From a virus, in IMG/VR virus record IMGVR_UViG_3300009100_000005: DNA of 47,766 nt, one strand, 5' to 3'. Positions 1 to 47,766 of this stretch are shown here, piece after piece (positions within the stretch are counted from its first letter, which is position 1; the number at the start of each line of letters is the position of its first letter). The notes beneath the pieces are model-generated. The model did not search any database and had not been told where the DNA came from. It saw only the letters and a list, made by a program, of their open reading frames with translations. A program made the translations under genes and the position numbers.

Positions 1-123
1 CGGACGACCGCCAGTAGGTGGCGATGGTGGGTACGGCTAAAACTAAAGTAACTTTAGTAGGAGAATGATATGCAAAATGAAGAAGAGCTGAGACAAATCC
101 TAGCTGGATTACAAGAAAGGCAA
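1..123. repeat. terminal overlap, identical to 47644-47766 (circular closure or terminal redundancy)
   Basis: Read directly: cggacgaccgccagtagg...caagaaaggcaa occurs at both ends; motif 43-57 = 47686-47700 and ATG 70 = ATG 47713. Confidence 0.9.
43..57. repeat. junction palindrome CTAAAGTAACTTTAG
   Basis: Exact; 12 nt upstream of ATG 70. Confidence 0.95.
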
Positions 124-1473
124 CAGCCAGTTCCTATCTGGCAGCGTATCATTGAATCCGTTGCTCGTGGAATAGGTACAGCTGGATCAGAACGCCCTGG
201 CGATGCTTTACTCCAACAGGTTAAAGAGAAAGGTGCTGAGCGACAAGAGCGTAATAGACGGCAGCAAGAGATTGCTAACGTTGCTACTCAATTTCGTCTG
301 ACAGACCTTGCTAATCGGATGGCAGAGAAGCGTCAGATTTCTGCTGAAGGCAGAGGTGAGGCTCGCGATATTGCCAAAGAGCAGAGAGATAAGCAAAGAG
401 ATGTTGAGATGTACAATCTACAACTCTCTGGTCAGAAAACTCTCAAAGGTATGGACAATGACCAAGCTATGAGTATGTTCAATTTGTCCAAAACCTGGGA
501 AAGTCTGATGAGAGAAGAGGATAAAGAATTTGCCCTTCGTCGTGATGAAACACAACGTAAGGGCAATTTTGAGGATCAGTCAAAGATTGCTCAACAGAAT
601 CTTGTCTACAGTCTGATTGCATCGAAGGTTATGGACGGTGGAAAAGTATCCGGTATGATGTCTAAGTTACGCAATGGTGGTGAAGGATTGACTGCCGACG
701 ATATGAAACTGCTCAACAAAGCTGCCGTTCAAATGAGCGATCAGAATTTTACTCGACAGCTTAAGCTTCAAATGGCCCAACGTGATGGTCAGTTTACTGG
801 TATGGAACGAATCCAACACGAGGCTGCTATGGCCGCGATGACTTCTGCCAGAACAGAAGAATTGATCAAGGTGCAAGGTCCAGATGGAGCAAGATTAATT
901 CCTGGCAGAAAAGATGATCTTGGTAAGTACATCATTCCACAAGGCTTTAAGTTTGTAGAGTCAGCAGACTATGGCGAAAGGTTGATGTACTTCTATGATC
1001 AGTTTGGAGTTACTGAAAGATTCAGAGTAGGAAAGAAAGACATAGAGAATCTTGAAGGCAATAACGGACACGACGTTAACCACTTTCTCAATGAAATCAA
1101 AAAAATCAGAGATTCTGGTGGCAACGATGATCAGGTTAAAGCTCAAATGGACATATTGAGTAATAAGTCTCCCAAGTATGCAGATGCTATTAGGTTGGCA
1201 TTGGCTACGGATGAGAACGAAAAACTTAAATCGAAATTTGATGCTAGCAAATCTGCTTTTGATGATACTAGCGGTCCTCTTGGATTTCTTGGTCGAACTT
1301 ATGAAAAGATTACCAAAGAACTTGGTAAACAAGGAACGGCTCGATGGCTTAGACAAGAACTTATCAAAGCTAAGAATAAGAGAGATAGGGCAACTAGCGA
1401 ATCAGATAAACAGGCATTGACAAAATTGATTGCTGAGTTAGAAGGTCGTCTTGATGTAGCAACCAAGAACTAA
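70..1473 (+). CDS. hypothetical charged, coiled-coil-rich protein; putative internal virion protein
   Basis: 467-aa ORF; AGGAG SD and ATG 12 nt after motif 43-57; stop TAA lies inside motif 1470-1484; function inferred only from position after the fibre genes. Confidence 0.75.
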   Translation: MQNEEELRQILAGLQERQQPVPIWQRIIESVARGIGTAGSERPGDALLQQVKEKGAERQERNRRQQEIANVATQFRLTDLANRMAEKRQISAEGRGEARDIAKEQRDKQRDVEMYNLQLSGQKTLKGMDNDQAMSMFNLSKTWESLMREEDKEFALRRDETQRKGNFEDQSKIAQQNLVYSLIASKVMDGGKVSGMMSKLRNGGEGLTADDMKLLNKAAVQMSDQNFTRQLKLQMAQRDGQFTGMERIQHEAAMAAMTSARTEELIKVQGPDGARLIPGRKDDLGKYIIPQGFKFVESADYGERLMYFYDQFGVTERFRVGKKDIENLEGNNGHDVNHFLNEIKKIRDSGGNDDQVKAQMDILSNKSPKYADAIRLALATDENEKLKSKFDASKSAFDDTSGPLGFLGRTYEKITKELGKQGTARWLRQELIKAKNKRDRATSESDKQALTKLIAELEGRLDVATKN

Positions 1474-1484
1474 AGTAACTTTAG
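1470..1484. repeat. junction palindrome CTAAAGTAACTTTAG
   Basis: Exact; holds stop TAA of 70-1473; 9 nt upstream of ATG 1494. Confidence 0.95.
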
Positions 1485-1493
1485 AGGTGTGAA

Positions 1494-4400
1494 ATGCCAC
1501 AAAATGTCTATAAAGCGCAGTTGCCGGTCGAGACTGTGCCACAACCATATCAGGCTCAAGTTCCGTATGAAGCACAATTACCATCTGATGCGGAACCGGC
1601 ACAAGGTTGGGGTGGCGCAGTCCTCTCCACTATTGCTCCGGCATTAGAGTTTATCTCGCGTCCTCAGTATGCCTCAGCCAAGTTTGCCGATAGCTTGGCT
1701 GATCCGTCGAAGTCTATCTTCGATGCGATGCTTGGAGCATTTCAGGAGTTTGTTAGTCCGAAGGATAAACTTTCATACTCTGAAGTTATTAGACGTAGAG
1801 CGCCAGAGTTTGCAAAGATGTATCCTAAAGCTACTTCTGTTATAGGTTTTATGGGAGATGTAGCATTTGATCCAACTACCTATTTAGGTATTGGGTTTGC
1901 TCGACAAGGTTTAACCGTAGGTCGTAAAGTTCTTACAGAGTTTGGTGAACAAACTTTGCACAGACTTGAGAAAGATATAGCACAGCAAGAAATATTGACT
2001 ACGGTTAAGAACAAAGTGAGAACCAATGTTATTGAAGCGGAACGGAAAGGTATACAAGCTCAATCTAGTTTGTTTACTAAGACAGAAGCTAGGCAAAAGT
2101 ATGGCGAGGTTCGTAGTTCGTTCTTACAGGAATTTGATGAACTAGCCAAAGATCCTGAACTTATGCGTAAGCTTCAGAATGGTACTATTGCTAGAAGTCG
2201 AATGAATGATTTGGCTCTTGATGAGTTAAACTCTGCTGGTGCTAAGGCTAAGTTTTCAAAGACTGGATTAGTACAATTGAAAAGACAGAAACCTGTCGAG
2301 TCTGTGATTCGTAAGCTTGCGCCAGAGGAAGTTACCGAAAAGGCAAGCCAGCGTATTCAAAAGTTAGCTGATCTTGATCCTGTTATTGCCTCGAAGTATT
2401 TTAAGCCGCGAGAGATTAACCTTCTTATCGGTCTACCATTCGGTAAACAGAAAGAAGTGTTGAGAATAATGGGTCTTGATTATCTCGACAGCAAGATTGA
2501 TGCTATCGTCAAGTTTAGGGATATGATTGTAGGAAAGAATATTCCTGTAATCAGTGCTGCTCTTGGCGCAGGCATTAAAGCTGGCAGAATGGCAAAGAAT
2601 GCTTTTGTCAGACCAAACGAAGAGCCATACAAGAATGCTATTACCGCTCTTGAGAAAGCTAAAAACTATAACGTAGGAGAAGTACATCGAGAGATTGTCA
2701 AACTATTTGAAGGTGTTGATGAAGCAGGCCGACAAAAGATCAGCAAGCTTGGCGTCGCTATTGACGATGAAAGCAGAGAAGTCGAAGCAAGGATAGGTAG
2801 AAGTCTAACTCAGACAGAAGCAGACAGAATCTATAGGGATGAGCTTTCTAAAGTAACTTTAGCTCCGAAGGAGATGGCTGCTTTTGCTGGTTTGACTCAA
2901 TCATATAAGACAGCAATGGAACTTGAGATGGAAGCTGGACTTCTCAAGAGTGCATTGCTGAATTATTATCCTCGTTATTACAAAGCTTTGGCTGATCCTG
3001 GCGAGATGTCTGTTCTTTTCAAAACTAAAAAAGGATTGTCAACCTCCCTTTCTTCGTCAAAGAAAAGGGAGTTTTTAACTTTACAAGAAGCCGAAGCTAA
3101 TGGATTTGTTCCTGAATTGGATGCTGCCAAGATATACGCTGCTCGTGTTATATCTTCTCGTCGTGCCTTGTCAGTAAAGCAATTTGAAGATTCCTTGAAC
3201 GGCATCTACAACTTGCCACAAGGTACAAAGATTGGTAGCAAAGCATTTAACAAGGTTATCCCTTCTGAAATCAAAGACGATATCAGAACGTTAGGAGAGT
3301 CAGTTTACCCTAGTGGTATGAACTCCACTGTTAATGACTTCTTGTACGCATATGATAGGTTGATGGGATATTTCAGACAAGGTGCAACTATCTTAAAGCC
3401 AGCGTTTGCTGTCAAGCAATTGATTAGCAATACTATGCAAATGGCTTTTGGTACTAATGCTAAAGCCTTTAAGTCTATGGATGGTAGATCATTCCTCGAT
3501 GCATCTATGCTTCTTATGGACTATTACAGAGGCAAACCAATAGAAGGATTACCGGGAGTATTTAAAAGTATCTTGAACAAACATTCTCTATCTGGCGAAG
3601 GTGGCGTTGATGCCATTCTTGCTGGTAGGGTAGCTTTAGAAAGGTTGATTAAAGAAGATGATATTCAATCGTTTGCGAAAGCTATTGAAATCATCCAACC
3701 GTCTGGTATGCGGTATAGCGGGGTTGACGTTGTTCGTCTTGGTAGAGAACACGGAATGGTTGTCAACTTTGACGCATCTGGCGAACAAATGTTCAGGCAA
3801 GTAGATGAGATACTTTCCTATGATCCAAAAAATAAAGTAACTTTATCGAAAGAATTGTTCAAATATTGGAAGATGTCTTCCACGTTTGAAACATATTCTC
3901 GGATGTCTGGTTTCATCCAAGGTTTGCGTATGGGCTATTCGCCTAAGCAAGCTGCCGCTGTAGTCGAAGATAATCTCTTTGATTATCTACACGGTCTGAC
4001 TAAGATAGAGAAAAGTTTTATCAGACGGGTGATGCCATTCTATTCGTTCCAACGCTTTGCTATACCGCAAGTGCTAAGAACGTTAGTACGCCAACCGGGC
4101 AATGCTGCTACTACCAACAAGATAGTTAACTTGATGGAGAAGTTAATTGTACCGGATGCTGAGAAGATGTCGGAGGCTGAAAGGGAAACATTTGGTGATA
4201 CATTACTTGTCGAACAGCCTAGACTATTCACTGGTTTCGACAAAGAAGGTAGAGCCAACTTCAATATCTTCAACAACTTCTCCCCACTAGATGCTTTGTC
4301 TCTTATGGTATATGACCAGAAGACAGATAAACTTGACCTAGAAAGAACAGTTCAAAGAACTTTCTTGGCTGCTCTTGCACCATACCTTAAGATTCCACTT

Positions 4401-4950: not shown

Positions 4951-4965
4951 CTAAAGTAACTTTAG
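4951..4965. repeat. junction palindrome CTAAAGTAACTTTAG
   Basis: Exact; 1 nt after the stop of 1494-4949. Confidence 0.95.
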
Positions 4966-5194: not shown

Positions 5195-5209
5195 CTAAAG
5201 TAACTTTAG
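5195..5209. repeat. junction palindrome CTAAAGTAACTTTAG
   Basis: Exact; 14 nt upstream of ATG 5224. Confidence 0.95.
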
Positions 5210-5818: not shown

Positions 5819-6188
5819 CCTCCTGAGCTAAAGTAACTTTAGCATCTAATTCCACGTCCAATTCTGTGCAATCCTTAAATTCATCAATGATAGTGTGCTT
5901 AAGCTCATATGATAGGTTGAAGTTACGCTGTCTTTTCAACTCTACCACTGCCATTAGGGTGTACTTCATCCAACTATAAAGCATTAACTCTTTCAATGGT
6001 GAGGGATACTTGCTATCAATGTAGAAGCATAATGCTCCACAAAGAACGCGAGACATACCTCGCAAAAAATCTTCATTGTTAAGGTCTTCTTCGTTAAGAT
6101 TAGCTTCTACCTCATCTAGTTGTATCTTTAGACAAGATTCGCCAATTCCGTCCAGCTTGATGCCCATTTCTTTTAGCTCATCAAACAT
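5769..6188 (-). CDS. hypothetical protein
   Basis: Track ORF 5769-6215 begins with GTG; I prefer ATG 6188, which overlaps the upstream stop (ATGTTTGA); the C-terminus reads through motif 5828. Confidence 0.55.
   Translation of the reverse strand: MFDELKEMGIKLDGIGESCLKIQLDEVEANLNEEDLNNEDFLRGMSRVLCGALCFYIDSKYPSPLKELMLYSWMKYTLMAVVELKRQRNFNLSYELKHTIIDEFKDCTELDVELDAKVTLAQEGEQDERREEKTDRREA
5828..5842. repeat. junction palindrome CTAAAGTAACTTTAG
   Basis: Exact; 9 nt upstream of minus-strand ATG 5818; read as KVTL in the upstream ORF. Confidence 0.95.
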
Positions 6189-6570: not shown

Positions 6571-6584
6571 TAAAGTTACTTTAG
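6570..6584. repeat. junction palindrome CTAAAGTTACTTTAG
   Basis: Exact; its loop is the stop of 6576-6827; its last base is the G of GTG start 6570. Confidence 0.95.
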
Positions 6585-7143: not shown

Positions 7144-7158
7144 CTAAAGTTACTTTAG
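7144..7158. repeat. junction palindrome CTAAAGTTACTTTAG
   Basis: Exact; fused to AGGAG, 7 nt upstream of ATG 7136 (minus strand). Confidence 0.95.
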
Positions 7159-7673: not shown

Positions 7674-7688
7674 CTAAAGTTACTTTAG
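7674..7688. repeat. junction palindrome CTAAAGTTACTTTAG
   Basis: Exact; its loop is the stop of 7680-8102; 11 nt upstream of ATG 7662. Confidence 0.95.
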
Positions 7689-8102: not shown

Positions 8103-9016
8103 CAGTCCTCCGCTGGATAGAATCCTTCTAAAGTTACTTTAGAAGTATCTTCCATCTCTCTTCTGAACTCCATTTCCTCTTCCTCTTCTTGAGCAAACTT
8201 TGGTCGAGTTGAACCAGTCCAGCAACTATCATAGAAGCGACAGAATTTACACTGGCTAGAGTTAGATCGAGTTTCCTCCTTATGGATAAGGCCCAATGGA
8301 TTCTTTCTTCTGATAGCTCTGATTGTATCTCTTAATCGAAGCAATCTATCCTGAATGAAATTCTCATTAGGCACTATTAGGATTGGCGACATTATATCAG
8401 ACGTAGCCCTATTCTTTATTATCAGATAGAACGGCATTCCCATCGCTTTGGTATACCATTGAATCTGACCGTACCATTGGTCTGATATTTCGCCTGTCCT
8501 CTTTATCTTATCCCACGTATACTTTTTGACTGACTTGATTTCTAAGCCGTAGTTCCTGTCTTTGAAAACAAGAACACCATCAATGTGAGATATGATTTTA
8601 AACTTTACTACGTCTACACTATTAGTTTCTTGGTCTTCTATCTCGCAAGCAATATCTGTTATCTTCTCATATTCCGGCTTATTTCCACAAGCCGCAACGT
8701 GTAACCCTCCTTTTTCTAAATGCTCAAAGACTGTAGCCTCGTGTATATGTCCATCATATAACGATGCTTCGGATTCTGCTCCCCTAATAGATGTACTAAC
8801 ACCATTTGCCATTGCTTGATACAAGCAGAGTTGACAAATATTAAATTCGCTGCCGTGAAAGTGACCTCTTACTTTCGCCGGTTTAGCTTTAGCTGCATTC
8901 ATTCTGCACGCTTGGCAAGGCTGACTTTGATCTGATGTCTTTAGCGCCCCGCCATAATATGCATTACGAATGAACCAAGATGTCTCGTCGTTATGCGGCT
9001 TCAGGCTTACTTGCAT
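8102..9016 (-). CDS. Cas4/RecB-like PD-(D/E)XK exonuclease with Cys cluster
   Basis: HIDGVL...LEIKSVK (D...ExK), QWYGQIQWY (QxxxY), N-terminal CQAC and C-terminal CKFCRFYDSC cysteines. Confidence 0.65.
   Translation of the reverse strand: MQVSLKPHNDETSWFIRNAYYGGALKTSDQSQPCQACRMNAAKAKPAKVRGHFHGSEFNICQLCLYQAMANGVSTSIRGAESEASLYDGHIHEATVFEHLEKGGLHVAACGNKPEYEKITDIACEIEDQETNSVDVVKFKIISHIDGVLVFKDRNYGLEIKSVKKYTWDKIKRTGEISDQWYGQIQWYTKAMGMPFYLIIKNRATSDIMSPILIVPNENFIQDRLLRLRDTIRAIRRKNPLGLIHKEETRSNSSQCKFCRFYDSCWTGSTRPKFAQEEEEEMEFRREMEDTSKVTLEGFYPAED
8128..8142. repeat. junction palindrome CTAAAGTTACTTTAG
   Basis: Exact; read as KVTL near the end of 8102-9016; 25 nt upstream of ATG 8102. Confidence 0.95.
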
Positions 9017-9293
9017 TTTTATTCAAGTTGTACACAATAGGCGACAACTGCATATTAGTAGGAGTAACTTCTAGCACTGGAATCTCCTGAGCTACTAAAG
9101 TTACTTTATCCAGTAAGTCGCCTATGTTTTCGGCTTGTACTGTTTCTAACATTCGTATCTCTCCAAACCTAAAAAACCCTAAAGTAAATTTTCCATCTTT
9201 AAATCTGATAACTAGATTGTTAGACAATAGCAGAACAGACAGTTTTTCTAACTTGCTTTTAATTACGTTAGTGCTAATCCAATTCATCGTCAT
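8991..9293 (-). CDS. hypothetical protein
   Basis: 100-aa ORF in the operon orientation; internal motif copy at 9095. Confidence 0.55.
   Translation of the reverse strand: MTMNWISTNVIKSKLEKLSVLLLSNNLVIRFKDGKFTLGFFRFGEIRMLETVQAENIGDLLDKVTLVAQEIPVLEVTPTNMQLSPIVYNLNKNASKPEAA
9095..9109. repeat. palindrome variant CTAAAGTTACTTTAT
   Basis: Core exact; inside 8991-9293. Confidence 0.9.
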
Positions 9294-9492: not shown

Positions 9493-9715
9493 CTTCACCC
9501 ATCTCAAATTCTATAGTAACATTTTCCGCTAAAGTAACTTTAGCTCTTAAATCACTGACGGTTTGTCGTGATAGTCTCAAGTCGTATATTCTTTTCTGTG
9601 CAATGTTGATTGATTTCTCAAGGTCTTGCGCCTTTAATTCGTATATGTCACCAACTTGCTCAAGGGCACTTAAGATATCATTATGCTCTTCTTCAGACAG
9701 TAGAACTTGCTTCAT
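9371..9715 (-). CDS. hypothetical protein (C-terminal CxCxxC)
   Basis: 114-aa ORF; internal motif at 9529; its last 122 nt overlap ORF 9274-9492 out of frame. Confidence 0.55.
   Translation of the reverse strand: MKQVLLSEEEHNDILSALEQVGDIYELKAQDLEKSINIAQKRIYDLRLSRQTVSDLRAKVTLAENVTIEFEMGEDAQPEPYIEETDPVHTICYCDICQRKRQSIITDGSIEQMG
9529..9543. repeat. junction palindrome CTAAAGTAACTTTAG
   Basis: Exact; inside 9371-9715. Confidence 0.95.
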
Positions 9716-10411: not shown

Positions 10412-10426
10412 CTAAAGTAACTTTAG
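10412..10426. repeat. junction palindrome CTAAAGTAACTTTAG
   Basis: Exact; 6 nt upstream of ATG 10405 (minus strand). Confidence 0.95.
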
Positions 10427-11687: not shown

Positions 11688-12025
11688 TATTCATCCTCAT
11701 CGAATTGCCACTTCGTACCCTTGTACAGAAGTTCTTCTTGGTCCAAACGAGTTTCTAAAGTAACTTTAGTCTCAGATTCTTTTGCTTTTACCTCAAGTTC
11801 TTTATGTAAGTTAGGGTTAGCCAGCGGCCAGACAATATCTCTGACCGTGATCATTTGCTCTATGAGTTTGTTCATCACCACAACGCTTTCGATGATGAAC
11901 CATCTGCCGCCTACTGCAATGATAACATATCTACCGTTTTCCTCGTACCCAATGATTTCAATATCTGCGTTGTGGGTACGATTTTGGTTTTGAATATGTA
12001 TCGAGACTAGCACCTGTTTTGACAT
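11687..12025 (-). CDS. hypothetical protein
   Basis: 112-aa ORF; internal motif at 11755; stop overlaps the GTG start of the SSB gene. Confidence 0.6.
   Translation of the reverse strand: MSKQVLVSIHIQNQNRTHNADIEIIGYEENGRYVIIAVGGRWFIIESVVVMNKLIEQMITVRDIVWPLANPNLHKELEVKAKESETKVTLETRLDQEELLYKGTKWQFDEDE
11755..11769. repeat. junction palindrome CTAAAGTAACTTTAG
   Basis: Exact; inside 11687-12025. Confidence 0.95.
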
Positions 12026-12572: not shown

Positions 12573-12792
12573 CCAATTCTCCTAAAGTTACTTTAGCCTG
12601 ATCTATCACAGGAAATATGGTTATATTCAAGTGATACTTTGCAGGCTGTCTCTCGTTAGAGTATCCGACTTCTATACTTAGTATGTCGGAATCCATAATC
12701 TCTGGAAGATTAACGTTAGCATCAGCAGAAAGCTCTGCCGGTACTTTTTCAAGGAATGGTGCTATCTTCGCAAAAAACTCTCTTACTCTCAT
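12514..12792 (-). CDS. hypothetical protein
   Basis: 92-aa ORF immediately after the polymerase stop; reads through motif 12582 as KVTL. Confidence 0.55.
   Translation of the reverse strand: MRVREFFAKIAPFLEKVPAELSADANVNLPEIMDSDILSIEVGYSNERQPAKYHLNITIFPVIDQAKVTLGELDEGSNGRPPESETIKVLPA
12582..12596. repeat. junction palindrome CTAAAGTTACTTTAG
   Basis: Exact; fused AGGAG, 9 nt upstream of ATG 12572. Confidence 0.95.
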
Positions 12793-14743: not shown

Positions 14744-15177
14744 CGTATCAACATCATTATTAGTCTAGCTATAACGTTAATAGCAGAAGCAGCCAATATC
14801 ACTAAAAGAATGTATTCTATCCAATCCCTTGCAGTCAAAAACTTTTCTATCCTAGCTTTAATTGTAGCTAAAGATATTTTATTCACATCCCTCCTGATAG
14901 GTCTATCTGGAAATTTAGTTAACAAGAACTCAAGTGCGTCAATTGCGCCATCAGCACGCCAATAAAGTCTCTGGCCAGTTTCGGTCGGGCTTTCGCAATA
15001 TTGGGCAGCAGTTTGTTCGCATTCTAACTGATAATCTATTATTATCTTTCTAGCATTGGCGTTGAAGTGGTTCAGCCTTTCCACCAAGTTTATTATTTGC
15101 TTGGCTTGGTGCCGTATCTTCCAGCGCTTTTGCTTCCATTTGTTTTTATTTCTAGGAACTAAAGTTACTTTATTCAT
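14740..15177 (-). CDS. hypothetical protein with C-terminal TM anchor
   Basis: Track ORF starts at TTG 15183; the first ATG is at 15177 and overlaps the upstream stop; motif 15159 is read as KVTL at codons 3-6. Confidence 0.6.
   Translation of the reverse strand: MNKVTLVPRNKNKWKQKRWKIRHQAKQIINLVERLNHFNANARKIIIDYQLECEQTAAQYCESPTETGQRLYWRADGAIDALEFLLTKFPDRPIRRDVNKISLATIKARIEKFLTARDWIEYILLVILAASAINVIARLIMMLIR
15159..15173. repeat. palindrome variant CTAAAGTTACTTTAT
   Basis: Core exact; holds the stop of 15170-15388. Confidence 0.9.
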
Positions 15178-15397: not shown

Positions 15398-15412
15398 CTA
15401 AAGTTACTTTAG
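15398..15412. repeat. junction palindrome CTAAAGTTACTTTAG
   Basis: Exact; fused AGGAG, 9 nt upstream of GTG 15388. Confidence 0.95.
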
Positions 15413-29476: not shown

Positions 29477-29491
29477 CTAAAGTTACTTTAG
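29477..29491. repeat. junction palindrome CTAAAGTTACTTTAG
   Basis: Exact; 11 nt upstream of ATG 29503. Confidence 0.95.
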
Positions 29492-31798: not shown

Positions 31799-32091
31799 TG
31801 AAGATGTTCTTGATGCCAGAATTGGTTTGCGAATGCGGATCGCACTTGTATAGAGAAAGTCGTGGCGAAACTATGTACTTTGCTTGCGTCTCTATGGCTT
31901 GTCCCGATTACGGAGTGTTCAAGATCGTTAAGTCAATCGAGATTCCGCATACCGTATCTCCCACTAGAGCAGATGTGGTATACCAAGACCTTGATCTTGG
32001 CGAACAAGAAGCTCAGAAGCAACGTGAAGAGAATGACAGGTTGCAAAAGGAGCACAGACAAGTAAAAGACTTGCGTATGTTCAGCGGCTAA
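31798..32091 (+). CDS. zinc-ribbon protein
   Basis: CECGSH...CVSMACPDYG; track start GTG 31795 moved to ATG 31798 (TGATG overlap); stop lies in motif 32088. Confidence 0.55.
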   Translation: MKMFLMPELVCECGSHLYRESRGETMYFACVSMACPDYGVFKIVKSIEIPHTVSPTRADVVYQDLDLGEQEAQKQREENDRLQKEHRQVKDLRMFSG

Positions 32092-32102
32092 AGTAACTTT
32101 AT
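32088..32102. repeat. palindrome variant CTAAAGTAACTTTAT
   Basis: Core exact; holds the upstream stop; its last two bases are the AT of terminase ATG 32101. Confidence 0.9.
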
Positions 32103-33984: not shown

Positions 33985-33995
33985 AGTAACTTTAG
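33981..33995. repeat. junction palindrome CTAAAGTAACTTTAG
   Basis: Exact; holds the terminase stop; 11 nt upstream of ATG 34007. Confidence 0.95.
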
Positions 33996-34006: not shown

Positions 34007-34216
34007 ATGGACAATGTATATGAGCCGATGATGCAATTCTTCGAGTATTCGCATTTGCCGATAGATTTGCAAACAGTTAGTTATCAGTTTTATAGCGTGG
34101 CTAATTGGATAGTCAATAGCCTTCCTCGTAATCCAGAAAGAACTGTTGCTTTGAGAAAGCTACTCGAAGCTAAAGATTGTGCAGTTAGGGCAAAGATTTA
34201 TAAAGATAATAACTAA
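34007..34216 (+). CDS. hypothetical protein
   Basis: 69-aa ORF flanked by motifs 33981 and 34213. Confidence 0.6.
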   Translation: MDNVYEPMMQFFEYSHLPIDLQTVSYQFYSVANWIVNSLPRNPERTVALRKLLEAKDCAVRAKIYKDNN

Positions 34217-34227
34217 AGTAACTTTAG
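34213..34227. repeat. junction palindrome CTAAAGTAACTTTAG
   Basis: Exact; holds the stop of 34007-34216; 18 nt upstream of ATG 34246. Confidence 0.95.
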
Positions 34228-36095: not shown

Positions 36096-36110
36096 CTAAA
36101 GTTACTTTAG
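36096..36110. repeat. junction palindrome CTAAAGTTACTTTAG
   Basis: Exact; 13 nt upstream of ATG 36124. Confidence 0.95.
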
Positions 36111-36911: not shown

Positions 36912-36926
36912 CTAAAGTTACTTTAG
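36912..36926. repeat. junction palindrome CTAAAGTTACTTTAG
   Basis: Exact; ends 1 nt before tRNA-Tyr. Confidence 0.95.
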
Positions 36927-36927: not shown

Positions 36928-37013
36928 GCCATTGTTGGGAAGTTGGTATCCCGACCCGTCTGTAAAACGGGTGTTCTTGACAGGACGTGAGAGTTCGAGT
37001 CTCTCCAATGGCA
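36928..37013 (+). tRNA. tRNA-Tyr (anticodon GTA), class II with long variable arm
   Basis: Acceptor GCCATTG / CAATGGC; D-arm GGGA-AGTTGGTA-TCCC; anticodon arm CCCGT-CTGTAAA-ACGGG; 17-nt variable arm; T-arm GAGAG-TTCGAGT-CTCTC; discriminator A; no encoded CCA; starts 1 nt after motif 36912-36926. Confidence 0.85.
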
Positions 37014-37037
37014 TAGGGCGAATGCTTTAGGGAGTAC

Positions 37038-37214: not shown

Positions 37215-37229
37215 CTAAAGTAACTTTGG
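37215..37229. repeat. degenerate copy CTAAAGTAACTTTGG
   Basis: One mismatch; followed by TGCC, as is copy 36912. Confidence 0.6.
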
Positions 37230-37239: not shown

Positions 37240-37254
37240 CTAAAGTTACTTTAG
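37240..37254. repeat. junction palindrome CTAAAGTTACTTTAG
   Basis: Exact; 23 nt upstream of ATG 37278; enclosed by the CCCTCTC/GAGAGGG stem. Confidence 0.95.
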
Positions 37255-37811: not shown

Positions 37812-38429
37812 ATGGGTGGATATGTCCATTATGATAGAATTGATGTGGGTTATCCAAAACCACAAACAATCATTTCAGATTCATTGAAGAAAGAGTTTAA
37901 TGATATGCCGGAAGATCGCAAGGAAAAAGTTATCAATCTTCTCCAAGCTAAGATTCGTCTGCTTGAGCAGAAGTGGATTGCTGATGTGAATATGTATGAG
38001 ACTCAGCAAGCAGAGGAAGATCGTAAATTCTTTCTCCATTATCGCAAGCCTACTAAACTAGAGCGAGAGGTGTTGATGAATGCCAGTGATAACATCGATG
38101 AGGTACTTCCGTATAAGCCTGTCGAAGATACTATCAAGAGAAACATCTTTGATAGGAGTGCTGCGTTTGACAGTCTGTTTGGTCTGAAAACTGATACAGT
38201 GTGTATGGGTCACGATGATGATCTATACGAATCTTTGGATATGACTCCCGTAGAGCCATTACCGACTAAAGTAACTTTAGTTGAGCAGCTCAACAAAGAA
38301 TTGGATCAGCTGACTATGCTCGTCGAAAGGATGGGTAATGTTTGTATTGTCGTTAATAAGAGAACACATAATATCGTATACAGTAACGAAACTGAAGATA
38401 CGGTAACAATCACATTCGAGAGGAAGTAA
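37812..38429 (+). CDS. hypothetical protein
   Basis: 205-aa ORF with an AAGGAGG SD; internal motif at 38266. Confidence 0.65.
   Translation: MGGYVHYDRIDVGYPKPQTIISDSLKKEFNDMPEDRKEKVINLLQAKIRLLEQKWIADVNMYETQQAEEDRKFFLHYRKPTKLEREVLMNASDNIDEVLPYKPVEDTIKRNIFDRSAAFDSLFGLKTDTVCMGHDDDLYESLDMTPVEPLPTKVTLVEQLNKELDQLTMLVERMGNVCIVVNKRTHNIVYSNETEDTVTITFERK
38266..38280. repeat. junction palindrome CTAAAGTAACTTTAG
   Basis: Exact; inside 37812-38429. Confidence 0.95.
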
Positions 38430-39193: not shown

Positions 39194-39208
39194 CTAAAGT
39201 AACTTTAG
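39194..39208. repeat. junction palindrome CTAAAGTAACTTTAG
   Basis: Exact; 1 nt after the scaffold stop; 40 nt upstream of capsid ATG 39249. Confidence 0.95.
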
Positions 39209-40296: not shown

Positions 40297-40311
40297 CTAA
40301 AGTTACTTTAG
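40297..40311. repeat. junction palindrome CTAAAGTTACTTTAG
   Basis: Exact; 1 nt after the capsid stop; 19 nt upstream of ATG 40331. Confidence 0.95.
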
Positions 40312-40911: not shown

Positions 40912-41199
40912 ATGCAAAAGAAAAGTGTTGGTCAGCCTTTAGCTAAACAAGTAAAGGCTGACCAAGAATTTACGCTTGCAGATGATTATAGTGAAGAGTA
41001 TCTTGAAGCTAAAGTAACTTTAGTCGAAGAAGAGAAATACAATCTCGGAGAGGGTGAGGCCAAAGAATCAGTAGCTCTTGCAAAGCCGTATAGCAGGAAG
41101 AAACAGCATAAGCTTGTTAATCAAGATTCTGTTGAAGAAATCCTTCCTACGGCATACCAACCGGGATTACTTGTTAGGAGATTAAAGAAAAATGCCTAG
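40912..41199 (+). CDS. hypothetical protein
   Basis: 95-aa ORF; internal motif at 41009. Confidence 0.55.
   Translation: MQKKSVGQPLAKQVKADQEFTLADDYSEEYLEAKVTLVEEEKYNLGEGEAKESVALAKPYSRKKQHKLVNQDSVEEILPTAYQPGLLVRRLKKNA
41009..41023. repeat. junction palindrome CTAAAGTAACTTTAG
   Basis: Exact; inside 40912-41199. Confidence 0.95.
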
Positions 41200-41745: not shown

Positions 41746-41760
41746 CTAAAGTTACTTTAG
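41746..41760. repeat. junction palindrome CTAAAGTTACTTTAG
   Basis: Exact; 21 nt upstream of ATG 41782. Confidence 0.95.
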
Positions 41761-42469: not shown

Positions 42470-42772
42470 ATGGCATTTGGATCAGGCAACTTAAACCTCG
42501 TTGACAGCGACGGAGCTAAGCATCTCGATCAGATCATAACTCCAACAGGATCATCGTTTACATACGTTAAGATTAGCGCTATTAAGATTGGTGCCAAAGA
42601 TGCTGGTGCAATCGTAGTAGGCGCTACTGGTCTAACAGGATCTAACTACGGATATGCTATTAAAGTGGGAGAAAGCTTGGAACTTATATTCCAAACTGCT
42701 GTCGCTGCTGCTCAGATATTCGTAAGAAATCCTGATACGACTTCGGTTAAGGTGGCAGTAATCGGGGGCTAA
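42470..42772 (+). CDS. hypothetical protein
   Basis: 100-aa ORF with a GGGAG SD; stop lies in motif 42769. Confidence 0.55.
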   Translation: MAFGSGNLNLVDSDGAKHLDQIITPTGSSFTYVKISAIKIGAKDAGAIVVGATGLTGSNYGYAIKVGESLELIFQTAVAAAQIFVRNPDTTSVKVAVIGG

Positions 42773-42783
42773 AGTAACTTTAG
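42769..42783. repeat. junction palindrome CTAAAGTAACTTTAG
   Basis: Exact; holds the upstream stop; 2 nt upstream of ATG 42786. Confidence 0.95.
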
Positions 42784-42785: not shown

Positions 42786-44474
42786 ATGGCATTCACTCAA
42801 ATAGAAGACATCAGATTGACTCCATTTAGCCAGCAGAAGTTTTCTGGTGGGATCAATACTTCTACGCCTGCTCCCACTATAGAAGACGATGAGGTAGTTG
42901 ATCAGCTAAACTTGATGCTGGATCAAGGCGATAACTTAGTTACAAGATCGGGTGTTTCTGGCGCTGGTGGTGCTTCTCTTTGGGGTAGTGCTATTTGGGG
43001 TACAAGTCTTTGGAGTAATACCACGTATACTCAGCGCATAACGAGTATGCTCAACTTCCAGAATGAGTCTGGATTCGTTGGTGTTCTCTATACTACTGGA
43101 ACCAAGCTCATTTCAAGGGCGTTAAATGGTAACATAACCGATATAACTGGTAGCTTGACATTACCCGACGATGTATTTTGGCAATGGCAGATAATGAACG
43201 GTATTGCTGTTGGAGTTAATAAGGCTACTTCTGGAAGCAATCCCGTTAAGGTTGTTGGGCCTGCTCCCGGTACTGCTTCAGCATTGGGTGGCAGTCCACC
43301 AAGAGCTAAATATGTTACTTTGTGGAATAGCAGGTTATGGATTGTGCGTGCTGACCAACCAAATCAGATTCAATGTTCTGATCTTGGTAATCCTGAATCG
43401 TGGAACACCGACGGTGGTGCAATTACTTCTCACGGTGCGATCTTTGACAGAGACACAGATGACGGAGATGTAATAACCGGCATTCACGCAACTAGGAAAA
43501 GATTGTTTGTCTTTAAGCGCAGATCAATTCACGTTGCGATAATGGTAAGCGAACCAGTAACTAATTTGAATTTTATCCATTGGGATTTATACTCGGATCA
43601 AATTGGTTGCGTTGCTCCTTATACAATTAAGACGGTAGCGAATGATGTTCTATTCCTTTCCGAGACTGGTGTTGCCAGCTTATCGGCTGTGGAGACTGTG
43701 GCAGATTTCGAGGAATCATTGCTTAGCCGTAAAGTTAGAGATATTTCCTTGATTAGTAAGAACGTTGAGGAAATTTCGGCTGGTGTGTTTGATGATGTTA
43801 CTCAGTATTGGCTATCTATTCCTCAAGTAGCTTCACCTGTAGGCAGGAACATTACATATGTTATGGACTACAGACGAATCTTTGAGAATAAAATTCGCTG
43901 GACTACTTTCGACGGTGGTGCCTGGGGTACTTGCTTTGAGAAGGTTCGCAATGGCAATAACATTGAATATCTTATTGGTGGACAGGATGGTACGGATTTC
44001 TATGTTGGTACATACAAACCGCTTGCCGTTGATAAGATTTATTCAGATGGATCAAAAGCTTATCGTAAGTATTTCAGGACTAAGGCATATGACTTCTCGA
44101 TGCCGAATATTAGGAAGGAATACTTTGAATGGACTATCATATTCTTGATTCGTACTGTTAGTTGTTCTATAGCTGTCAATTACTATTTCGATGATGAACA
44201 ATCAGAGGCTAACGGTAATTATTCGTTCAATTACTCGATTAACGTGACTGGTACGTTGTGGGACCAAGCGCAATGGGATGATGGCGTATACGATCTGACA
44301 TCGAAACCAATTCGTAAGGTAGCACGGAAAGGATTTCTGTTTAATGATGATGGCAGGAAGGCAACTTCCGTGGCATTTGATGTTTTGAATGCGCAATTAG
44401 ATCAAGCTTTTGAAGTGCTTAACTTGTCGGTATACTACTTGCCATTGACATCGGATCTTACGGGAATTGACTAA
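42786..44474 (+). CDS. putative tail (nozzle/tubular) protein
   Basis: 562-aa ORF between the adaptor-like and fibre genes; ATG 2 nt after motif 42769-42783; contains a motif relic at 43306. Confidence 0.5.
   Translation: MAFTQIEDIRLTPFSQQKFSGGINTSTPAPTIEDDEVVDQLNLMLDQGDNLVTRSGVSGAGGASLWGSAIWGTSLWSNTTYTQRITSMLNFQNESGFVGVLYTTGTKLISRALNGNITDITGSLTLPDDVFWQWQIMNGIAVGVNKATSGSNPVKVVGPAPGTASALGGSPPRAKYVTLWNSRLWIVRADQPNQIQCSDLGNPESWNTDGGAITSHGAIFDRDTDDGDVITGIHATRKRLFVFKRRSIHVAIMVSEPVTNLNFIHWDLYSDQIGCVAPYTIKTVANDVLFLSETGVASLSAVETVADFEESLLSRKVRDISLISKNVEEISAGVFDDVTQYWLSIPQVASPVGRNITYVMDYRRIFENKIRWTTFDGGAWGTCFEKVRNGNNIEYLIGGQDGTDFYVGTYKPLAVDKIYSDGSKAYRKYFRTKAYDFSMPNIRKEYFEWTIIFLIRTVSCSIAVNYYFDDEQSEANGNYSFNYSINVTGTLWDQAQWDDGVYDLTSKPIRKVARKGFLFNDDGRKATSVAFDVLNAQLDQAFEVLNLSVYYLPLTSDLTGID
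43306..43322. repeat. motif relic CTAAA-TAT-GTTACTTTG
   Basis: Looks like a copy split by a 3-nt insertion (read as AKYVTLW) inside 42786-44474. Confidence 0.4.
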
Positions 44475-44485
44475 AGTTACTTTAG
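44471..44485. repeat. junction palindrome CTAAAGTTACTTTAG
   Basis: Exact; holds the stop of 42786-44474; fused GGAGG, 9 nt upstream of ATG 44495. Confidence 0.95.
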
Positions 44486-44494: not shown

Positions 44495-44629
44495 ATGCCA
44501 AAAGGTGATCCGGCAGGATATTTGCCAAATGTGAAGAAGTCGAGAAAGAAAGCAACAAAGAAGAAAAAAGGGAAGAAGAATTTATCCTCTGTAAGAGAGA
44601 AGTTCGTTAAGACTGCAATGGGTTACTAA
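44495..44629 (+). CDS. small highly basic protein (44 aa, below track cutoff)
   Basis: My translation is MPKGDPAGYLPNVKKSRKKATKKKKGKKNLSSVREKFVKTAMGY; bracketed by motifs 44471 (fused GGAGG SD) and 44626 (supplies the stop). Confidence 0.4.
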   Translation: MPKGDPAGYLPNVKKSRKKATKKKKGKKNLSSVREKFVKTAMGY

Positions 44630-44640
44630 AGTAACTTTAG
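44626..44640. repeat. junction palindrome CTAAAGTAACTTTAG
   Basis: Exact; fused AGGAG, 8 nt upstream of ATG 44649. Confidence 0.95.
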
Positions 44641-45909: not shown

Positions 45910-45924
45910 CTAAAGTAACTTTAG
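45910..45924. repeat. junction palindrome CTAAAGTAACTTTAG
   Basis: Exact; fused AGGAG, 11 nt upstream of ATG 45936. Confidence 0.95.
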
Positions 45925-45935: not shown

Positions 45936-46688
45936 ATGGCACTTGCTAGACTAAATGATTTCGTTGCCGGAACTCTTATCTTAGATTCGCAGGTAGACTC
46001 CGAGTTCAACCAACTTGTTGGAGCACTTAATGGTACAGACTCGATTGAAATATTGCATAAGTTCTCCCACGCGACTACTCCCGTTATAAACGCAAATCAA
46101 CTCAATACTGCCGTAACTGCCCTGATTGTAAAAGGTCAACAGAACTCAGTAGATACCTTTAAAATCAAAGCTAATGGGTACATTGTTGGCTATCCTAAGA
46201 CTATTAACTCGGCTTTGCCTAGCGTTGGCAATGTTGGTGCTGGTGTTGATACATTGTTATCGTATGATATTCCCATAAATAGTCTAGCAGCTGATCTGGA
46301 TTACTTTGAAGCTGAATTTGGTGGCATTTTTGCTACTAATAACAACGACAAGAGGGTTGTAATCAGTATTGGTGGGGTCACGTTTGAAGACACAGGCGTA
46401 ATAGACATAGACGGTCTTGCTTGGAATTTTAGGGTGAAAGGGATAAGAGCAAGCTCTACTTCTTTGATTTTAAATGGTTGTTTTGAGGGAGCATTATTGC
46501 AAACGGATAGCGCAGGTACTAACGCTGCTACAGGGATAGGCGGTAGATTTGATGCCAGAGTTTCTAATCCTACTGGTTTAGCTAACCTTGGTTCCAACGT
46601 ATTAAATCTACTTGTTCAGGCAGAAGGCGTTGCCGACAACGATATAACTATCAGATCGGTCAAGGTTGCTGTTTGCCAGATGAGCTAA
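45936..46688 (+). CDS. tail fibre/receptor-binding protein 2
   Basis: Shares its N-terminal module with 44649-45398; motif 45910 lies upstream with a fused AGGAG; stop lies in motif 46685. Confidence 0.55.
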   Translation: MALARLNDFVAGTLILDSQVDSEFNQLVGALNGTDSIEILHKFSHATTPVINANQLNTAVTALIVKGQQNSVDTFKIKANGYIVGYPKTINSALPSVGNVGAGVDTLLSYDIPINSLAADLDYFEAEFGGIFATNNNDKRVVISIGGVTFEDTGVIDIDGLAWNFRVKGIRASSTSLILNGCFEGALLQTDSAGTNAATGIGGRFDARVSNPTGLANLGSNVLNLLVQAEGVADNDITIRSVKVAVCQMS

Positions 46689-46699
46689 AGTAACTTTAG
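46685..46699. repeat. junction palindrome CTAAAGTAACTTTAG
   Basis: Exact; holds the stop of 45936-46688; fused GGAGG, 9 nt upstream of ATG 46709. Confidence 0.95.
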
Positions 46700-46708
46700 G
46701 AGGAAATT

Positions 46709-47683
46709 ATGGCGTTGAATGCCTTTCAAACAGAAGTCCAAAAGCTTGCCAAAAAGCTAGGACTGCAAGGCTCTGACGAACAGAGAGTTTACGCCAGTCC
46801 TGAGTATAGCCAATTGGTCGGCAAGTATTTTGGCCAGATTGACTTACCGGCAGGAGTTACCGAAGATATGGTAACTTTCAGAACTCCTTTCGGTATTGAG
46901 TATAAAGATCAATATGGCTACATCCATAAGCTCGAAAGGAATATGGATGCCAGATCGCCACAACTTGGTCAAGTTAATGAGAAGACTACTGATCGCCCTG
47001 CCATACTCCCACTAGAGAAGACAAACCCTGGGATAGCAGAAGCGATGAAGCTTTTGACTGAGAGAACATCTCAGCCTATGTCGTCAGGATTGCCTAAGCT
47101 TGATCCAGATACTCTGGCAGAATTGCAAGCTATAGCTAAGGGCAATCAAGATCAGCTTGACCAGTTGTTCGAGAGGGGCAGAGGCGATCTGATTACTGGT
47201 TTGTATGGTAGTGGCAATAACCGTTCTACTCTGGCTAATGATGCTTCTGCTAGGTTACTGCAAGAACAAGGTATAGTTCAATCTGATAAACTTGGTAAGG
47301 ATGCCGAAAGAGAATTGGCAGCTAGGGCAGGATCGAGAGATGCAGCAATAAACTTGAGAGGTCAAGATATTCAATACTTGATGGGATTGCTTGGTCAAGA
47401 TACTGCTCGTGCTGTTCCTTCTGCTCAATTGTCTCAACAGCAATCTGAATTGAGAGAGAACTCAAGACAGTTCGATTTACAATATTTGTTAGAGCAAGAG
47501 AAGATGAAGCAGCAACAGCGTAGTGGTCTTATGAGTGCATTGGCTGGAATTGCTAGTGCTGGTCTATCGTTGATACCGGGTGTTGGTCCAATCTTAGGTG
47601 CTGCTTCTAGCTCTATCTTTGGTGGATTAACCGGAGGAAAAGCCGGACGACCGCCAGTAGGTGGCGATGGTGGGTACGGCTAA
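46709..47683 (+). CDS. hypothetical protein with Gly-rich hydrophobic C-terminus; putative internal virion protein
   Basis: 324-aa ORF; ATG 9 nt after motif 46685-46699 with GGAGG; the C-terminal SGLMSALAGIASAGLSLIPGVGPILGAASS segment runs into the terminal overlap. Confidence 0.65.
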   Translation: MALNAFQTEVQKLAKKLGLQGSDEQRVYASPEYSQLVGKYFGQIDLPAGVTEDMVTFRTPFGIEYKDQYGYIHKLERNMDARSPQLGQVNEKTTDRPAILPLEKTNPGIAEAMKLLTERTSQPMSSGLPKLDPDTLAELQAIAKGNQDQLDQLFERGRGDLITGLYGSGNNRSTLANDASARLLQEQGIVQSDKLGKDAERELAARAGSRDAAINLRGQDIQYLMGLLGQDTARAVPSAQLSQQQSELRENSRQFDLQYLLEQEKMKQQQRSGLMSALAGIASAGLSLIPGVGPILGAASSSIFGGLTGGKAGRPPVGGDGGYG

Positions 47684-47766
47684 AACTAAAGTAACTTTAG
47701 TAGGAGAATGATATGCAAAATGAAGAAGAGCTGAGACAAATCCTAGCTGGATTACAAGAAAGGCAA
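47644..47766. repeat. terminal overlap, identical to 1-123
   Basis: Same 123 nt as the window start; genome unit is 47,643 bp. Confidence 0.9.
47686..47700. repeat. junction palindrome CTAAAGTAACTTTAG
   Basis: Exact; the same physical copy as 43-57 (terminal overlap). Confidence 0.95.

Follow-up and report, generated by a model that had tools for sequence, protein, structure and literature searches.

High-copy invariant repeats have been noted, and left unexplained, in Cluster O mycobacteriophages, in the Nostoc phages A-1 and N-1 and in T1-like phages, and for the bacterial protein Noc roughly 70 dispersed 14-bp palindromic sites are known. The KorB operator of the IncP plasmid RK2 is palindromic, 13 bp long and degenerate at its central base pair (TTTAGCSGCTAAA), and KorB acts there by a clamp mechanism (PMC11790492). 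Cluster O mycobacteriophages carry a 17-bp palindrome, TGTTCGGNNNCCGAACA, in more than 30 invariant copies per genome, together with about three one-mismatch copies (PMC4351075). Here we describe a related array in the IMG/VR virus record IMGVR_UViG_3300009100_000005, a DNA stretch of 47,766 nucleotides (nt) that is called the window throughout, in which the palindrome TAAAGTWACTTTA is present in 67 exact copies (regular expression and pattern search). We hypothesize, at chances that fall just short of even, that this array provides operators or loading sites for a symmetric dimer, most likely a ParB/KorB-like protein encoded in the window, and that it serves genome-wide control.

Positions 1-123 of the window recur at 47644-47766; the assembly is hence circularly closed or terminally redundant, and the genome itself measures 47,643 bp. 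The palindrome at 47687 thus duplicates the one at 44, and the 67 palindromes of the window correspond to 66 per genome unit. Dinucleotide-preserving shuffling (100 times) yielded a mean of 0.02 palindromes and never more than one, which bears out the enrichment claimed in an earlier, sequence-only reading of the window. That reading had listed 46 copies of the full CTAAAGTWACTTTAG, with C and G as flanking bases, and 20 copies of the core alone; both lists proved exactly right, with no extras and none missing. The central base is A or T (W) in 66 of 66 copies, as had been stated, and never G or C (S); permitting any base at the centre retrieved no additional copy. Only three one-mismatch copies exist (14492, 21738 and 37216), and a fourth proposed relic at 43306 does not belong to this class; two-mismatch copies occur at chance level (about 4). 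The distribution of the palindrome is all-or-none. The reported preference for A over T of about 2:1 on the sense strand amounts to 41:25 in the overall count, and outside the regulatory region the ratio (34:18) does not differ significantly from sense-strand composition (p=0.13), and the orientation of the central base is not significantly linked to gene strand. An assembly artefact, considered as a source of the copies, was rejected, since the independent assembly Logan SRR5585388 (47,645 bp) and the JGI contig Ga0075428_100000314 carry the same genome. With a mean spacing of 722 bp and a largest gap of 1.9 kb, the array is the densest found, at one site per 720 bp.

The palindromes are under purifying selection, site by site. 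In the relative L162 (about 75% nucleotide identity), six of six orthologous sites are identical in 15 of 15 positions while their flanks diverge, and the central base flips between A and T at orthologous sites of L162 and the window. In the relative L165, 21 orthologous sites are exact, including those deep inside genes, and their 30-nt flanks are 56% identical. The copy in the DNA polymerase gene aligns residue for residue, without insertion or deletion, with the K-x-T of a variable loop in homologues; sites hence arise by point substitution and are then maintained. An origin of the in-gene copies by insertion, in the manner of mobile palindromes such as repetitive extragenic palindromes (REP) or miniature inverted-repeat transposable elements (MITE), was rejected on the basis of this alignment; no transposase was found either.

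The motif has counterparts in related metagenomic phages. Relatives were gathered via homologues of the polymerase and of a conserved protein of 1151 amino acids (aa), with sister lineages sampled at about 20 kb per genome, and the loci were scanned de novo for palindromes. At least five palindrome words, specific to lineages, were found across related uncultivated podophages with a shared architecture. The clade of the window uses TAAAGTnACTTTA, with a looser form, TTAAAG-NNN-CTTTAA, in L159; other words are TAAACAnTGTTTA (21 copies in 24 kb), TTTAACCnGGTTAAA (18 copies in 24 kb), TTAAATnATTTAA (up to 19 copies in 19 kb) and the TCAAATnATTTGA class, (AT)TCAAATsATTTGA(AT), with 24 copies in 24 kb and 48 in a 41-kb genome. 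Every lineage places its word against the Shine-Dalgarno (SD) sequence in the same manner. In the sister lineages the centre is S, not W, and both orientations are used. Changes of the arms between lineages are always compensatory, and the dyad is thereby retained. High-copy dyads occur only in the clade in which the 1151-aa protein is about 27-44% or more identical (L175, at 27% identity, has 19 copies), and the de novo scan detected no palindrome in two clade members and in more distant relatives. In L166, L170, L178 and L234, the asymmetric TTAAAT-class variant TTAATTTATTTAA lies on the same absolute strand in 29 of 39 cases (29:10), whatever the direction of the genes. This might point to a polarity connected with replication or packaging, where the sites may be orthologous and not independent of each other.

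These data argue for recognition at the level of double-stranded DNA. A centre that is W only (or S only) in both orientations points to a symmetric dimer reading DNA, as an RNA loop would fix one base. Central W/S degeneracy on a dyad axis is likewise a feature of sites of the CCWGG and CCSGG type. We therefore consider the palindrome to be, probably, a double-stranded DNA site for a symmetric dimer. Alternatively, the palindrome might act in RNA, as a hairpin (6-bp stem, 3-nt loop) that marks the 5' edge of every cistron and is bound by a sequence-specific RNA-binding protein or an endoribonuclease (Cas6-like), or as an AU-rich translational enhancer; UAACUUUA matches 8 of 9 bases of the T7 gene-10 'epsilon' enhancer. 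Such an element would account for the 39 of 66 sites that lie directly 5' of an SD sequence, a start codon or a tRNA, and for the retained complementarity of the arms between lineages. Two of the three one-mismatch variants keep the sense-strand stem pair as a G-U wobble, the third affecting a loop base, where the variants are few and the same test had a mixed outcome in other lineages. However, the hairpin that the sequence-only reading had proposed can fold but is marginal (-1.9 kcal/mol with A and -0.4 kcal/mol with U at the centre, zero for the TTAAAT class), and such near-zero stability argues against an RNA structure, as does the all-or-none exactness. Furthermore, the central base is not a fixed one, the stem-breaking TTAAATAAATTAA appears 7-10 times per locus in sister phages, 27 sites lack a nearby start and are nevertheless exact and conserved, no Rfam family was matched, and within-genome covariation is absent as the sequence is invariant. 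An mRNA hairpin is thus disfavoured and seems the least probable of the explanations weighed here.

The placement of the sites was assessed with a curated set of 74 protein genes and one tRNA gene. While 39 of the 66 sites lie at most 45 nt upstream of a start codon or the tRNA, 14 are found deep within genes at a distance from all starts, and the other 13 in non-coding DNA; the earlier impression of one palindrome per gene hence applies to 39 of about 75 units and misses the in-gene and non-coding copies. The upstream gene's stop codon is provided by the site in 18 cases. The modal distance from the end of the core to the start codon is 10 nt, and the SD sequence AGGAG overlaps the final two bases of the 15-mer. 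Sites are missing from all 30 junctions at which genes overlap or abut, but occupy 23 of the 32 short gaps (5-80 nt) and 9 of the 10 long ones; the slot just before the SD sequence is the only tolerated intergenic position in such compact genomes. On either strand the palindrome can be translated without a stop in a single frame, so that every in-gene copy encodes K-V-T-L (20 instances among annotated proteins). The density of in-gene copies, 0.45 per kb in long and 0.41 per kb in short genes, is far above chance. The presence of sites within genes and in non-coding DNA, together with this equal in-gene density, indicates that the palindrome is not tied to translation. A spacing rule, such as for priming or looping, was rejected for the same equality of long and short genes. 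The regulatory region is densest in sites (10 in 2 kb), and no conserved sequence was detected upstream of the sites.

Several of these positions would suit a compact promoter, with TAAAGT as a -10-like element (A at -11, T at -7) and with the final A of the core, 7 nt further downstream, as the transcription start. The RNA would then begin at the ribosome-binding site, at the start codon of a leaderless gene or at the tRNA, and the site would be used either by the host RNA polymerase, assisted by a phage factor that has escaped recognition, or by a phage polymerase that has done so. A -10-only promoter for a redirected host polymerase was among the roles suggested by the sequence-only reading, and TAAAGT-N6-A does have the canonical -10-to-start geometry. 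The modal 10 nt to the start codon and the overlap with the SD sequence agree with this, as does the site that ends 1-2 nt before the 5' end of tRNA-Tyr. The ATG overlaps the last A of the site (CTTTATG) in two genes of the window, which have no SD sequence, and in at least six genes of the unrelated phage L055/L370, where several such genes likewise have none. Two strong terminator-like hairpins (26187-26157 and 29439-29469) are each followed by a site within about 10 nt and then by an SD sequence and ATG, so that a conventional promoter would not fit in between. Within the two 20-kb gene blocks, sigma70-like matches show no enrichment, and sigma70 promoters or terminators were rejected as organisers of these blocks, the only enrichment being that of terminators in the 24.5-30.5 kb regulatory region. 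Promoter sets of T7 and of T4 late genes are similarly invariant and are also found inside genes. However, an asymmetric polymerase or sigma factor would leave the perfect two-fold symmetry and the W or S centre unexplained, and every site would fire both ways. The sister words TAAACA, TTAACC and TCAAAT do not fit TANNNT, and a conserved upstream element is missing. Neither Pfam nor PHROG searches of about 60 proteins revealed an RNA polymerase or sigma factor, in agreement with the sequence-only reading, which had recognised no phage RNA polymerase. The 1151-aa protein was rejected as a hidden RNA polymerase: it has no PDB sequence match, and its AlphaFold2 model (predicted local distance difference test, pLDDT, 47; all-helical) has no significant fold match, the nearest non-significant ones being T7 core proteins. 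Altogether, a promoter function appears unlikely, although it is a serious rival of the operator.

If the palindrome is read by a symmetric dimer, the window encodes two kinds of candidates, both of which had been pointed out before and both of which are real. The first is a ParB/KorB/Noc-like protein. It is matched by phrog_1033 (E=1.3e-4) and by TIGR00180 (E=7e-4, below the curated cut-off), with no Pfam hit, and it contains a GRQRRG arginine patch at residues 97-102. In its AlphaFold model (pLDDT 65 overall, 70-87 over the N-terminal 250 residues) the best PDB match is KorB (8qa9, E=2e-4), followed by ParB, Noc and Spo0J, and the top 28 matches are all of the ParB family; these matches have a probability of about 1 over some 235 columns and span the N-terminal domain and the DNA-binding domain. 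The helix-turn-helix (HTH) stretch IAQLLKKSEMWISKVARV aligns with an HTH_ParB-positive stretch of the L370 protein. A ParB CTPase-fold N-terminal domain combined with an HTH is thus predicted with moderate model confidence. The gene is the first of the leftward regulatory transcript, and the stretch from a sigma70-like promoter match to its start codon contains two sites. This two-site arrangement recurs in the contigs L371 and L372, which encode a homologue with 45% identity and carry the same word at 1.8-2.3 sites per kb (25 sites in 13.9 kb and 19 in 8.3 kb, respectively); no ParB-like relatives were found in IMG/VR. The second kind comprises three tandem winged-helix (wHTH) paralogues of 79, 83 and 81 aa, which are HTH_34/PadR/ArsR-like; the gene that starts at 23087 is directly preceded by a site, and these proteins are alternative candidate readers.

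The strongest single clue to the reader comes from a second phage. IMGVR_UViG_3300029913_000052 (L055, L065, L078 and L370) is a 41-kb phage with Pam3-like and Kyanoviridae-like genes that has only a distant DNA polymerase in common with the window. It carries TAAAG-YWR-CTTTA about once per kb, and thereby shares the half-site TAAAG..CTTTA with the window. One of its proteins is ParB-like and falls into the same PHROG as the window protein (E=2.8e-18; Pfam HTH_ParB 2.7e-7); its HTH stretch resembles that in the window, and its gene has a site just upstream. The co-occurrence of a ParB-like gene and the same half-site in two unrelated phage lineages would be expected if the ParB-like protein were the reader, a proposal which we regard as tentative and somewhat less than evenly balanced.

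A host protein might explain the same co-occurrence. A ParB/Noc-type or other dimeric regulator of the host could be hijacked or titrated by the phage, and the sister words would then reflect different hosts. The half-site is common to two phages that, the distant polymerase aside, share no structural or replication genes, both of which encode a pentapeptide-repeat protein, and no conserved phage-encoded binder was found across the motif classes. The 7-1-7 architecture also resembles the boxes of bacterial dimeric regulators, e.g. the Fur family and CodY. On the other hand, each of the two TAAAG-class lineages has a ParB-like gene of its own that is preceded by sites, and a scan of a genome collection for host genomic repeats or prophage relatives with the 18-mer CTAAAGTAACTTTAGGAG, which includes the SD sequence and was not designed for dispersed host sites, returned single chance-like hits in unrelated genes and no clustered copies. 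We consider a host factor to be distinctly improbable.

A role in DNA metabolism was weighed in three forms: a junction for cassette exchange, a Chi-like mark for the Cas4-like exonuclease, or a signal for lagging-strand priming. Sites flank most non-overlapping genes, and the mean spacing and largest gap given above would be suitable for such a signal. The Cas4-like exonuclease gene is present in all family phages with a strong exact palindrome, and it is absent from two palindrome-free members (L173/L239, L174/L235) and from three with degenerate palindromes (L166, L178, L234). The strand preference of the asymmetric variant in some sister phages also fits. However, the exonuclease correlation comes from few, phylogenetically linked genomes, some relatives have gaps of 3-5 kb, and the lack of an in-gene excess in long genes speaks against a spacing rule. 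Concerning the recombination junction that the sequence-only reading had listed, in-gene copies are products of point substitution and not cassette borders, orthologous sites are stable and gene order is conserved, which disfavours this role. Moreover, 15 bp is short for homologous recombination. A DNA-metabolism signal is hence very improbable, if slightly less so than the RNA element.

Among the roles considered at the outset, an operator for a dimeric protein is therefore the one with most support (dyad, W centre, ParB-like fold, co-occurrence in unrelated phages), where the reader is still a candidate. A possible mechanism may be drawn by analogy with KorB, Noc and ParB. A ParB/KorB/Noc-like dimer would load at every one of the 66 sites and then either stay in place or spread, and loading at all sites would bring the whole phage chromosome into one protein-bound state. 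Most sites occupy the sole tolerated slot between a stop codon and the next ribosome-binding site, and extra copies have become fixed in genes and non-coding DNA. The output would most likely be genome-wide control of transcription by silencing or road-blocking, as for KorB and the mycobacteriophage stoperators, and the two upstream sites might confer autoregulation on the ParB-like gene. This regulatory output, proposed by analogy, is the least certain step.

A number of observations weigh against the ParB-like protein as reader or against the operator model as a whole. No ParA, Walker ATPase or KorA-like partner was found among the proteins scanned with Pfam, PHROGs and NCBIfam, which makes the window protein an orphan ParB-like protein. 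A pairwise BLAST comparison of the ParB-like proteins from the two lineages gave no significant similarity (E=0.64). Sister lineages with other words revealed no ParB-like or wHTH homologue by hidden Markov model (HMM) and phmmer searches in the sampled DNA, and neither did a near-complete 41-kb genome of the TCAAAT class (Pfam scan, 38 open reading frames). Either the family-wide binder is another, unrecognised protein, or the ParB-like protein has diverged past detection. The pentapeptide-repeat protein shared by the window phage and IMGVR_UViG_3300029913_000052 suggests that a common host, and hence a host factor, could explain the shared word. Finally, the site 1-2 nt before the tRNA 5' end, the sites directly after strong terminator-like hairpins and the start codons that overlap the last A of a site are explained equally well or better by a promoter. 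A still broader model, in which a lineage-specific exact dyad, set before almost all independently translated units and at additional positions, is read throughout the family by a co-evolving, phage-encoded symmetric DNA clamp or dimer (a ParB/KorB-like CTPase-fold protein in the TAAAGT lineage), and in which word switching insulates sister phages from each other, is conceivable but doubtful.

Palindromic sites and associated features of the window (coordinates in nt; strand given for directional features; L numbers denote related contigs)
Feature	Coordinates	Strand	Remarks
site	44..56		junction, 13 nt upstream of ATG 70
site	1471..1483		junction; TAA = stop of gene 70-1473; ATG 1494 10 nt after
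site	2849..2861		in 1151-aa gene (K-V-T-L); then SD + in-frame ATG; conserved L165
site	3833..3845		in 1151-aa gene (K-V-T-L); conserved L165
site	4952..4964		right after 1151-aa gene stop, no start downstream; conserved L165
site	5196..5208		junction, 15 nt upstream of ATG 5224 (+)
site	5829..5841		junction, (-) gene start 5818
site	6571..6583		junction, (-) gene start 6570
site	7145..7157		junction, (-) gene start 7136
site	7675..7687		junction, (-) gene start 7662
site	8129..8141		junction, (-) gene start 8102; in exonuclease gene tail
site	9096..9108		in-gene (K-V-T-L)
site	9530..9542		in-gene; conserved L162 + L165
site	10413..10425		junction, (-) gene start 10405; conserved L162
site	11756..11768		in-gene; conserved L162 + L165
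site	12583..12595		junction, (-) gene start 12572; conserved L162 + L165
site	13865..13877		in DNA polymerase gene (P-K-V-T-L-S); substitution, not insertion; conserved L162 + L165
site	15160..15172		in-gene, 4 codons past gene start
site	15399..15411		junction, (-) gene start 15388
site	15822..15834		non-coding, just downstream of primase-helicase gene end
site	17199..17211		in primase-helicase gene, after zinc-binding motif; conserved L162
site	17755..17767		junction, (-) gene start 17745
site	18729..18741		junction, (-) gene start 18718
site	19010..19022		junction, (-) gene start 19001
site	19769..19781		junction, (-) gene start 19734, 34 nt away
site	20555..20567		junction, (-) gene start 20544
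site	21341..21353		in-gene (K-V-T-L)
site	22579..22591		junction, (-) gene start 22568; just downstream of wHTH cluster
site	23095..23107		junction, (-) gene start 23087, wHTH paralogue
site	23929..23941		junction; (-) gene ATG overlaps site's last A; no SD
site	24547..24559		junction, (-) gene start 24532
site	24966..24978		junction, (-) gene start 24952
site	25308..25320		non-coding regulatory region
site	25418..25430		non-coding, downstream of sigma70-like promoter 25490-25462 (-)
site	25760..25772		non-coding regulatory region
site	26136..26148		junction; after terminator-like hairpin 26187-26157 (-), before SD + ATG 26115
site	27419..27431		27 nt upstream of ParB-like gene start (27391); position conserved L371 + L372
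site	27470..27482		second upstream of ParB-like gene, after conserved TTGACAATTTGA; conserved L371 + L372
site	27697..27709		regulatory region
site	28411..28423		non-coding low-GC region
site	28584..28596		non-coding low-GC region
site	28912..28924		non-coding low-GC region
site	29209..29221		non-coding low-GC region
site	29355..29367		non-coding; 1st of three within 135 nt
site	29388..29400		non-coding; 2nd of three within 135 nt
site	29478..29490		junction; after terminator-like hairpin 29439-29469 (+), before SD + ATG 29503
site	30087..30099		junction, ATG 30109; heads five overlapping genes
site	30628..30640		in-gene (K-V-T-L)
site	31349..31361		in-gene (K-V-T-L)
site	32089..32101		junction; terminase ATG overlaps site's last A; no SD
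site	32847..32859		in large terminase gene, aa 250 of 627
site	33982..33994		junction; TAA = terminase stop; ATG 34007
site	34214..34226		junction, portal ATG 34246
site	36097..36109		junction, ATG 36124
site	36913..36925		15-mer ends 1-2 nt before tRNA-Tyr 5' end
site	37241..37253		junction, ATG 37278
site	38267..38279		in-gene (K-V-T-L)
site	39195..39207		junction, major capsid ATG 39249, 41 nt away
site	40298..40310		junction, ATG 40331; conserved L165
site	41010..41022		in-gene; conserved L165
site	41747..41759		junction, ATG 41782; conserved L165
site	42770..42782		junction, ATG 42786; conserved L165
site	44472..44484		junction, ATG 44495; conserved L165
site	44627..44639		junction, ATG 44649; conserved L165
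site	45911..45923		junction, ATG 45936; conserved L165
site	46686..46698		junction, ATG 46709; conserved L165
site duplicate	47687..47699		= 44-56, in 123-bp terminal overlap
one-mismatch copy	14492..14504		sense CTAAAGTAGCTTTAG, in polymerase gene; same variant kept in L162 + L165
one-mismatch copy	21738..21750		
one-mismatch copy	37216..37228		then tRNA-5'-like GTGCC
ParB/KorB/Noc-like protein, candidate binder	26195..27391	(-)	398 aa; GRQRRG arginine patch; HTH IAQLLKKSEMWISKVARV
three small winged-helix paralogues, alternative candidate binders	22584..23350	(-)	79, 83, 81 aa
sigma70-like promoter match TTGACA-17-TATGCT	27514..27542	(-)	upstream of two sites + ParB-like gene
tRNA-Tyr	36928..37014	(+)	abuts site

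The window is the complete, circularly permuted genome of an uncultivated podophage. Recognised virion and packaging genes encode a P22-like portal, an SU10-like adaptor, the major capsid protein and the large terminase. Replication genes encode a family-A DNA polymerase without a 5'-3' exonuclease domain and a primase-helicase with a zinc-binding motif; a Cas4-like exonuclease, a protein resembling single-stranded DNA-binding protein (SSB), a pentapeptide-repeat protein and an SPFH protein are also encoded. Rightward genes extend from about 29.5 kb via the window end to 5.4 kb and leftward genes from about 27.4 kb to 5.4 kb, with a low-GC regulatory region at about 25-29.5 kb. At the DNA level no near cultured relatives were found, the capsid protein is at most 29% identical to those of Myxococcus, Ruegeria and Microcystis phages, and the ParB-like proteins and the 1151-aa protein had no match among cultured phages. 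No integrase or CI-like immunity repressor was recognised, where most early proteins are without annotation; the ParB-like gene could fit a plasmid prophage life style.

The 378-aa protein encoded at 10551-11687 (-) belongs to the family core, has a CPIC motif and terminates in DEEDDDIPF, like the C-terminal tip of bacterial SSB (DDDIPF). The protein is probably an SSB of the phage that docks onto those host proteins which interact with SSB, and this C-terminus argues for a bacterial host. The early block further contains the pentapeptide-repeat gene (21474-22262, (-)) and the SPFH/Band-7 gene (17915-18718, (-)). Pentapeptide repeats are typical of cyanobacteria and their phages, which is a weak hint at the host.

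Within the regulatory region, another 20-bp near-palindrome, GTGTAAACAATCGTTKACAC, is present at 27558-27577 and 27588-27607, 30 bp apart, between divergent sigma70-like promoter matches; the pair looks like a conventional operator pair of another regulator. A gene for 74 aa (25891-26115, (-)) is bracketed by two strong terminator-like hairpins (25850-26187), and between the upstream hairpin and its ATG there are only a palindrome and an SD sequence. The in-gene site at 2849 is followed by AAGGAG and an in-frame ATG (2849-2876), an arrangement kept in L165, so that a 691-aa C-terminal product of the 1151-aa virion-side protein (gene 1494-4949) could be translated separately. Around the tRNA gene, which was the only match in an Rfam search of the window, a 650-bp non-coding stretch (36622-37277) contains tRNA-Tyr and the tRNA-like fragments GGTTCGAGTCCAACC (T-arm/acceptor-like) and GGTACGGGTAGCTCAGTTGG (5' half), and a degenerate copy of site plus tRNA 5' end lies at 37215. 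This suggests decayed or split tRNA genes that were duplicated along with the site.

The switch of the word in at least five sister lineages that kept the architecture constitutes a natural experiment. If the ParB-like protein binds the sites, regulators of the ParB-CTPase fold (KorB, VirB, BisD) would extend to genome-wide control in phages, orphan ParB-like genes, which are common in phages, would find an explanation, and a compact set of orthogonal operator/binder pairs would become available for synthetic biology. Should the family-wide model hold, this would be the first ParB-fold protein acting as a global switch of expression or chromosome state in a virulent-type phage, and the orphan palindromes of Cluster O would be explained as well. 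If the palindrome were a promoter instead, it would represent a new class of 13-bp symmetric promoters with unit-by-unit transcription.

Phage promoter sets offer one comparison. The promoters of T7, T3 and SP6, the N4 hairpin promoters and the T4 late promoter (TATAAATA) are invariant, lineage-specific words of 8-23 bp that lie before many and inside some genes, and those used by the virion polymerase of N4 form hairpins of 5-7 bp that have 3-nt loops. Those words are asymmetric, in contrast to the perfect dyad described here, and no phage RNA polymerase, gp55-like protein or sigma factor was detected in the window. The precedents named in the sequence-only reading, the start-associated sequences (SAS) of Cluster K mycobacteriophages and the promoter-early stem-loops (PeSL) of T4-type phages, are comparable in that the former are short conserved sequences immediately upstream of many starts and the latter mark cassettes at gene borders. 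However, SAS are asymmetric, contain the ribosome-binding site and are linked to starts only, whereas the present sites are symmetric, precede the SD sequence and are not start-linked in 27 of 66 cases; in PeSL a sigma70 early promoter is joined to a stable stem-loop, and the present sites have neither. Both are less close than the KorB operators, the stoperators and the Cluster O palindrome.

The stoperators of Cluster A mycobacteriophages (L5, Bxb1) are 24-36 near-invariant 13-bp sites in short intergenic gaps that overlap stops and starts, with a lineage-specific consensus that co-evolves with the repressor and with genome-wide silencing by a block of elongation (PMC9283540, PMC6550527). 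In contrast to the perfect dyad of the window, in which neither integrase nor immunity repressor was recognised, stoperators are asymmetric, follow the direction of transcription, bind a repressor monomer and belong to temperate phages. The Cluster O sites are divided about equally among intergenic DNA, the vicinity of gene 5' ends and gene interiors, without a link to predicted promoters; a dimeric binder was predicted by the authors, and ParB-like domain proteins are encoded in Cluster O genomes (PMC4351075). They differ from the present sites by another sequence, a 3-bp spacer, a high-GC actinobacterial host and half the density, they are not closely start-linked, and no word switching has been described for them.

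The array of the window resembles the KorB operators in its many dispersed copies on one replicon, some near promoters and some in genes, and in a ParB-CTPase-fold plus HTH protein encoded on the same element; it likewise resembles the systems of other ParB-fold regulators (Noc binding sites, VirB/virS, BisD), some of them on mobile elements. It differs from the KorB system by density (66 sites on 47.6 kb compared to 12 on 60 kb), by belonging to a virulent-looking podophage and not a plasmid, by the lack of a recognised ParA or KorA partner, by sites packed against ribosome-binding sites, and by sister phages that use other words without a detectable ParB-like gene. Considering all of these systems, KorB and the RK2 operators are the closest mechanistic analogue, and the Cluster O palindrome is the closest phenomenological one, with the stoperators also close.

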